Source: Eledone cirrhosa (taxonomy: Eukaryota). Taken from it: DNA of 64,000 nucleotides. The stretch spans positions 103,478,001-103,542,000 of the forward strand of contig OZ024743.1 in the NCBI GenBank assembly GCA_964016885.1, in the 5' to 3' direction. The notes below the pieces were generated by a model. The model made no database searches and was not told the origin of the DNA. It worked only from the letters and a program-made list of their open reading frames with translations. The translations under genes were made by a program, and so were the position numbers. Of the stretch, positions 24,817-26,262 are shown piece after piece (the stretch's first letter is position 1; each line of letters begins with the position of its first letter).

Positions 24817-26130
24817 GTTTTGCGAGGTTTTTTATATGAAATCGTGTGTCGAAACAAATATTGTTATACTTGCGGAGGGTCATATTTGTGTAATATTGCC
24901 AGAATTAATAACAGAACACACTCACTGTTTGGTTGGTTTTCGCTTCTCGCTTCTGTGTCTTTTATATCGGTAATCTAACTTACTCGGTCCTCAATGTTGC
25001 CATTGACTGACCGACGGTCAAAAATAATACAGATACAATATAGACACAAACACATATATATGGTTTATCATAAATCTTTCGTTGCACATCTGCAACATCG
25101 TCAGTGGTGCTATATTTTCCTCCTGTTGTATTGTATGTCTACGCCATTTTTATTCAGTCTGTCTATATATTTATTTATTTATTTGCTTGTTTGTTTATTT
25201 TATTTTGTCTTCTTTGCGCATGCGCTTGCGTGTGTGTATAGTGTTTTGTTTGCTGTGTGATGGGTGACTAGTGTGTGTTTATGTGCTTGTTGTTATTGTG
25301 CTTGTGCATGTATTTATTTATTTATTTATTTTATTTTATTTACTTATTTATACTTCTCTTAGGTCAGTGTTGTTTGTTTGGGTGTTGTTGTTATTCCATT
25401 CATTCTTTCTGTTTAGCCTTGGTCTTCTAATTTCTATTTCACTGGCCTCTCTGATTTGCCTATCTGCTGGGTCATTTCTATGTTTAGATATTATTCTAAT
25501 TTCTATGTTGTCTATGTTACCGTCATGTTGTTGTCTAGCATGTTCGTATAGTACTGACCCGTTTTTTCGTCCTTTTAGTTCCCCCCAGTGTTGGTCTATC
25601 CTTTCACCTATGCTACGAGCTGTCTCACCTATGTATGTTGTTGTCATGTTTCTGCAAGTACCCTCTGTACATCGTATGCTATAGACTACGTTTCTAGTTT
25701 TACAGTTTATCCGGGGGGTTTACCTTACATATGATACATTTCCTATTGGTACAGTGGGTTTTCTTAAAAGGGTAGGTTTTGCTGATCAGGGATTTTATGG
25801 TGCTTCCTGGCTTTTCTACCACCTTAATTTTTAAGTGGGTCTTTCTCAGGGCCTTTCTACACTGGTTAGCTAATTTCCCTCCAGGGGTAGCGTCCACAAA
25901 CATGACACTCTGGTATCTCTGGTTGTCGTACCATGAGGTGGCTTTCCCTATCTTATGTCTAGCCCTATCTAAGCTATTCCATGATTTGCTCCTGTATAAT
26001 GGGCAAATTCCTTTCATGTCCAGTTCTATGAGGGTCTTATACTTCTCCATGGCTCCTTCGTATACTCTGACTCTGTCTCTTTGGTTGTAGCCAGAGAACT
26101 GCATGCGGTTGATGAAGTGTTGGATGACAA
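24817..26130 (-). mobile_element. 5'-truncated Penelope-like element (GIY-YIG), with family H 3' end
   Basis: RMQFSGY..PLYRSKSW..VMFVDATPGGKLA..KVVEKPG..CTNRKCIIC; YIGETARSIGERIDQH..RQIREASEI..LNRKNEW. The 3' end abuts (TA)n. Confidence 0.88.
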
Positions 26131-26262
26131 TCACTTTTACCTTATATGGAATTACCCCCTGAGAAGTTCGGCTATTCACTTACCAGGCTAAAAATGTTTA
26201 TTTAGTCCAGAATTAGCCGTCGAAACGGCTTGAGCTCAGCCGTCGGGGTCCTACTTATTCCT
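26130..26262 (+). mobile_element. Family B HHR arm fused to the truncated PLE
   Basis: Matches 49795-49923: acccc-CTGAGAA..GAAA cggct tgagctc agccg TC ggggt. Confidence 0.8.

Follow-up and report, generated by a model that had tools for sequence, protein, structure and literature searches.

A Penelope-like insertion block in Eledone cirrhosa with arms from two unrelated families, and candidate routes to its formation

Inverted arms and tails derived from the same family are standard for Penelope-like elements (PLEs; PMC8557442, PMC2377424), and how they are formed is an open question for which PMC8557442 asks for mechanistic work. Self-priming has been proposed (PMC3846280), and extension of both strands has been described in vitro (PMC11167929). 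One block in the 64,000-nt stretch of Eledone cirrhosa DNA that we analysed (hereafter the window) raises the question of how an inverted arm can come from a family other than that of the element body. The left 1310 nt of this block (24817-26126) are the minus-strand 3' part of a 5'-truncated PLE, family H, the right 137 nt (26125-26261) are a plus-strand arm of family B, and (TA)n lies on both sides. The analyses confirmed that this two-family PLE block, 24817-26261, is real. On each outer side the block finishes exactly at a native element end that points into (TA)n, the H end being tailed and the B end tail-less. The left flank is a (TA)21 tract (24775-24816), presumably the target, inside which a TSD is unreadable, and the right flank (26262-26564) consists of (TA)n and a compound (GA)n/(TG)n/(TA)n microsatellite.

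The H arm holds an RT thumb, a Zn-finger linker, a GIY-YIG endonuclease, a hammerhead of its own and an ORF start. The thumb and a CX4CxxC linker (25700-26126, minus strand), 5'-truncated at 26126, were 39-46% identical to the top relatives, including P0120 and P0023. The endonuclease piece (25348-25719, minus strand), which carries a CCHH motif and the stop codon, was assigned from the PF01541 matches of its relatives and from a structure model; a frameshift near 25713 splits the minus-strand frames 26126-25700 and 25719-25351. PF01541 (GIY-YIG) was matched by 23/60 aligned members at E≤0.01, and the window's own endonuclease piece gave no PF01541 match in Pfam. The model of this piece (pLDDT 91) had I-TevI as its best fold match (E 3.4e-3, prob 1.00), and its top matches were I-TevI and UvrC GIY-YIG domains, none of them at E≤0.001. 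The window copy ends inside the thumb, and an RT domain upstream of the endonuclease is suggested by the long relatives: P0120, P0075 and P0023 contain putative RT motifs, matched by regular expressions. Pfam RT had no match in these three proteins, and P0120 had no useful sequence match in the PDB. Among ten proteins looked up, the sole informative name was that of an Octopus bimaculoides protein, which hints at an octopod host, and a scan of metagenome contigs for the H protein confirmed 0/101 stretches. Residues C16, C21, H59 and H64 (also H43) were almost invariant in the endonuclease alignment A5, in agreement with the CCHH motif, and the CX4CxxC linker was conserved in alignment A4, fitting the CX2-5CxxC linker between RT and EN by which the Neptune/Nematis clades are defined (PMC8557442). 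In its GIY-YIG endonuclease, CCHH motif and pLTR, family H agrees with a canonical C-terminal EN+ PLE.

The 3' end of H has the pLTR-plus-tail layout described for PLEs in PMC3846280. Positions 24817-25088 matched an H copy at 56439-56701 (78%), and the 46-nt tail (24817-24862, minus strand) forms a long, tailed 3' end, the same one that this copy has at 56701. A related arm, which lies at 15129, ends at the equivalent of 24863. A repeated H ORF start (24817-24883, minus strand) has its ATG at 24883, from which 22 codons stay open as far as the end of the element. The frame is kept in the 56439 copy, with 20/22 residues identical, and we infer that this ATG is the true H start. A minimal hammerhead-like motif was placed by hand at 25061-25104 (minus strand); it has a CUGAnGA core, a 5-bp helix II and GAAA, and its helix I is weak. 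The window copy of this motif has a private change at U16.1, in the cleavage triplet, and position 25062 differs from 99.9% of the depth in X1, one of the runs whose contigs are compared below. The custom descriptor used to search for hammerheads missed the H motif and other minimal motifs, and no Rfam hammerhead was found among the 150 of 161 whole-window matches listed or among the three in the block.

The right arm is a short, tail-less arm of family B (26125-26261, plus strand). Positions 26130-26262 matched the B copy at 49793-49923 (88%, E 1e-42), and other B arms were matched too. The arm carries a predicted type I hammerhead (26148-26261, plus strand) with its core at 26159, predicted cleavage after 26244 and a palindromic loop III; its extended helix I has its base at the short end of the arm. 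A descriptor scan of both window strands gave two matches, both of them B copies. The predicted type I fold, catalytic core, G10.1-C11.1 pair and palindromic loop III are those of a PLE-type hammerhead. The core has U3:A8, a variant described for PLEs (PMC4209133), in the 49822 copy and C3 with A8 in the 26159 copy, and the B hammerhead of the block is probably inactive. The constrained three-way fold of the arm lies 1.6 kcal/mol above the MFE, and its unconstrained folding was no better than that of shuffles (z -1.05).

Family B has a tail of its own and also occurs as B-only insertions with two arms. The 64-kb window contains three of these, and each has one arm ending in TTCC and the other ending 80 nt farther. 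No tandem B units were found among the four B blocks in the window, B being read here from 26125 on, and scans of metagenome and viral contigs with the B-core pattern gave 0 matches. An 11-nt motif common to the B and C tails (754-824 and 60931-61010) is a candidate protein-binding signal, possibly for a common partner element. A greater divergence of short than of long B arms, as might come from a different RNA pool, was rejected on a like-for-like comparison (p 0.56); one arm had been misaligned across a 10-nt deletion.

The H and B arms meet head to head at 26125-26126, with no microsatellite at the junction. Contigs from 4 of the 24 listed runs were compared with the block, 25149-25351 being left out as repeat. 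H-type contigs left the window after 26126 (63 in X1, 9 in X5 and 1 in X6), and two B-type contigs of X5 matched from 26125 onward. As H ends at 26126 and B starts at 26125, the overlap is 2 nt (TG); this is the junction microhomology that the earlier note had proposed to look for, and an overlap of this size is expected by chance in ~17% of cases. One X4 contig was identical over 25944-26126 and continued with 302 nt unlike B. The continuations of H-type contigs past 26126 were alike in three runs and the letters listed read as an open frame, and H copies continue beyond 26126 into non-B, apparently RT-coding sequence. The earlier note had described a (TA)n-flanked block in which a minus-strand truncated H is joined to plus-strand B without an intervening microsatellite, and both the anatomy and the contig breaks agree with it, but the junction, given there as ~26130, is refined to 26125/26126. 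The B end at ttcctat that it had called usual was found here, as TTCC followed by (TA)n, and in two of the three other short B arms; in the remaining one the tract is preceded by 4 extra bases.

That the inverted arm is not H's own pLTR, as had been claimed, is supported by the hammerhead and ORF start in H and by the non-B sequence with which H copies continue. With a hammerhead and an ORF start of its own present at the 3' end, H is expected to have H pLTR sequence, and not B, as its 5' region. Similarity between B and the H 3' region was at shuffle level (p 0.76 sense, 0.68 antisense), and this, together with the non-B continuations, speaks against the possibility, raised in the earlier note, that B is the 5' region of this PLE. 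It is hardly credible that the H transcript includes B farther upstream, which would make the arm an ordinary inverted copy of the same RNA. H is known here from a truncated copy and not at full length, which would allow it, but a separate hammerhead and ORF start lie in the 3' end of H, B has a tail and two-armed insertions of its own, with 78 X1 contigs continuing from 26264 into the B tail, and the two families lack similarity. We also regard an assembly misjoin as very improbable. The junction was unbridged by any contig among the 32 pieces listed (26,564 more exist), but with no more than 2 nt in common the two sides offer no repeat at which a misjoin could form, and the outer ends are intact.

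The block contains sequences of two different RNAs that point in opposite directions and meet at their 5' ends, which is the geometry of a twin-priming chimera. The best reading, to which we give an even chance, is one integration in which both nicked strands primed on different RNAs. A GIY-YIG endonuclease would nick both strands of the (TA)n target. The left 3'-OH would start at the distal (tailed) start site of H and copy 1310 nt into the RT thumb, and the right 3'-OH, paired through TAT to the proximal (tail-less) start site of B RNA, would copy 137 nt that include the hammerhead. End-joining and fill-in would then unite the two cDNA ends. A single event inside a (TA)n target leaves the TSD unreadable. 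Priming of a single strand followed by a template switch was rejected, as it needs an antisense template ending exactly at the native end of H. The statement of the earlier note that the two target ends primed two RNAs holds as the single best reading, but two-sided priming is unproven, since a deletion that fuses neighbouring insertions leads to an identical arrangement.

Fusion by deletion, whether later or during insertion, is a close rival, its two forms together being only somewhat less probable than an even chance. In the first form, neighbouring H and B insertions separated by (TA)n were later fused by deletion of the H inverted arm, the spacer and the B tailed arm. On its own we consider this unlikely, though deserving of serious weight. 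Inverted repeats and (TA)n are prone to deletion. PLE-type blocks are common neighbours in the window, often lying side by side with only a microsatellite between them (1725/1832/2043 and 24500/24817), and internal skips of 39-706 nt, which account for 14 of the 15 listed joints (43 further joints exist), are present in other H copies. A further two-family junction without a microsatellite, with a 6-nt overlap, is present at ~15440. Against later fusion, the H arm differed from the nearest listed contigs at only 8 of 794 nt (~1%), which leaves little time, and the deletion would need to have ended almost precisely where an unusually long B arm has its inner end. The arm at 26125 is the longest of seven B arms on the upstream side of the short end, and its inner end lies ≤5 nt from the equivalent, at 26130, of that of the 49790 arm; both inner ends sit 29-34 nt before the hammerhead core. 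In other H copies (two runs) an opposite-strand joint, 25135/25832, lies 31 nt before the H core and is most simply explained by an inverted arm derived from H itself. The agreement of the two B inner ends, together with the similar placement of the H joint before its core, makes the inner end of the B arm look native and not cut.

In the second form of fusion, a single-armed element was inserted later beside a block of the other family, and its cDNA end was joined inside that block with deletion of the intervening target. This is a little less likely than the first form. Single-armed copies do exist (H at 56439-56703, C at 1725-1776), and 5' joining at microhomology without a TSD has been described for a PLE (PMC3846280). 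The B arm may also be older than H: it differs at 6/102 sites from the best listed contig of X5, which is another organism, vs ~1% for H (p 0.003), an excess that subfamily differences can explain. However, the join would have to fall at what looks like the native inner end of the B arm, and the B core has only 1/61 differences from the window majority. As estimated from these differences, the ages of the H and B arms are compatible, which favours a single integration.

Returning to the priming of two RNAs in one integration, the pairing of a tailed with a tail-less end was seen in 7/7 of the same-family blocks that were typed (B x3, C x2, family I at 2062-2796 and an H-like block at 15129-15445); blocks 3020, 11903, 39378, 48788, 49423 and 61644 were excluded from end typing. 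Since fusion by deletion also leaves native ends pointing outward, this rule is worth only about a twofold preference. In the B-only block at 49724-49922, the long arm contains only the tail and the short arm only upstream sequence, with no overlap of template. These arms cannot have been made by fold-back unless a deletion followed.

It is also conceivable, though very unlikely, that insertions made at the same time into two distant (TA)n sites became linked through their 5' ends to give a rearrangement bridge, as for L1. Head-to-head bridges of two L1s have been published with the same geometry (10.1101/2024.08.27.596794), and no element was found spanning both flanks; against this, signs of rearrangement are absent within the window, and persistence of such a bridge in the germline should be rare.

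The block shares with the canonical EN+ PLE insertion, as described in PMC8557442, PMC3846280 and PMC2377424, a 5'-truncated body, an inverted arm at the 5' end, a tail at one end only, a hammerhead and ORF start in the pLTR, and a microsatellite target. It differs in that its inverted arm comes from an unrelated family, and the self-priming model for inverted junctions, as set out in PMC3846280, cannot give a heterologous arm in one step. The closest biochemical parallel is the PAc protein (Poseidon, Anolis), for which PMC11167929 describes nicking and extension of both strands in vitro, two internal RT start sites that define the tail, an AT-rich target and a predicted dimer. The nicking and extension of both strands, the paired start sites and the AT-rich target agree with our reading of the block, but the PAc assay, as described, used one RNA species, with mixed templates and the joining of a second arm outside its scope, and the Zn-finger linker of H is absent in Poseidon. 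For LINE-1, twin priming on two RNAs has been invoked for chimeras in which tRNA or 5S fragments stand in opposite orientation (10.1101/2025.02.02.635956). As in our reading of the H/B block, each end of a single break there copied a different RNA, and the copies were linked through their 5' ends. These chimeras involve a non-LTR enzyme, poly(A) priming and readable TSDs, in contrast to the element-specific internal starts and unreadable TSD of the H/B block. Two-RNA twin priming is thus known for LINE-1, and the Penelope case is new as far as we have searched: no heterologous-arm PLE insertion was found in the literature searched, which consisted mostly of open-access main texts without supplements (PMC11722881 and PMC13282606 served as context only).

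Family B itself resembles the non-LTR retrozymes and non-autonomous PLE derivatives described in 10.64898/2026.07.22.740005 and PMC4209133 in being short and in having a type I hammerhead, a palindromic loop III and the U3:A8 variant, but it occurs here as inverted tailed and tail-less arms and not as tandem repeats. The suggestion of the earlier note that B RNA travels with the PLE RT in trans was not supported; B makes its own two-armed insertions, and its tail motif is common to family C (p 0.0065) but not to H (p 0.38; six pairs tested). The account in PMC3846280 of no cross-mobilisation between PLE types in Adineta also counts against a cross-family reading with two RNAs.

A heterologous arm cannot arise by fold-back of one cDNA, so such blocks, if they are single events, favour two primers and two RNAs, and would be natural tracer experiments on how arms are built. 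We tentatively propose, at clearly less than even chances, a more general model in which a PLE builds its inverted arm from another RNA molecule that is primed independently, with the tailed start used on one strand and the tail-less start on the other, and in which loose pairing co-inserts RNAs of unrelated families at a measurable rate and can swap pLTR arms between families in a single step. If true, this would be a route for the exchange of modules between PLE families. The present evidence is one case, and genomes dense in PLE-type elements would allow a direct census of heterologous blocks.

Several other features of the window and of the runs were observed. The H sequence (24817-26126) was 99-100% identical over 100-450 nt in X4, X5 and X6, runs labelled as different organisms, and 11/24 listed runs, with eight organism labels, had a share above 0.2; such near-identity across labels would reflect either recent spread or close relatives. 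At 15129-15553, a short H-like arm and a long H-like arm are followed by a family-I-like arm in the same orientation, with the 6-nt overlap at ~15440 and without (TA)n, a junction that may be due to deletion or to a template switch. The B block at 1832-2024 has a symmetric palindromic centre on TA, a pattern read as self-priming in PMC3846280, and the join of the 49724-49922 block is a tiny palindrome at TA. Another hammerhead-core arm (24540-24774, core at 24674-24715) points from the left into the same (TA)n tract as the H tail, and two more hammerhead-bearing families (2062-3837 and 61644-62818) form partial tandems with inverted arms that are retrozyme-like. Other Penelope-like fragments lie at 58769-60780 (minus strand), 7910-8373 (plus strand) and 36236-36913 (plus strand), the first of which ends at the (TA)n tract flanking the B block at 60838. 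Lastly, the region 27119-33813 contains two LINE-like elements, with ORF1-like frames on opposite strands and pieces of an AP endonuclease and RT on the minus strand.
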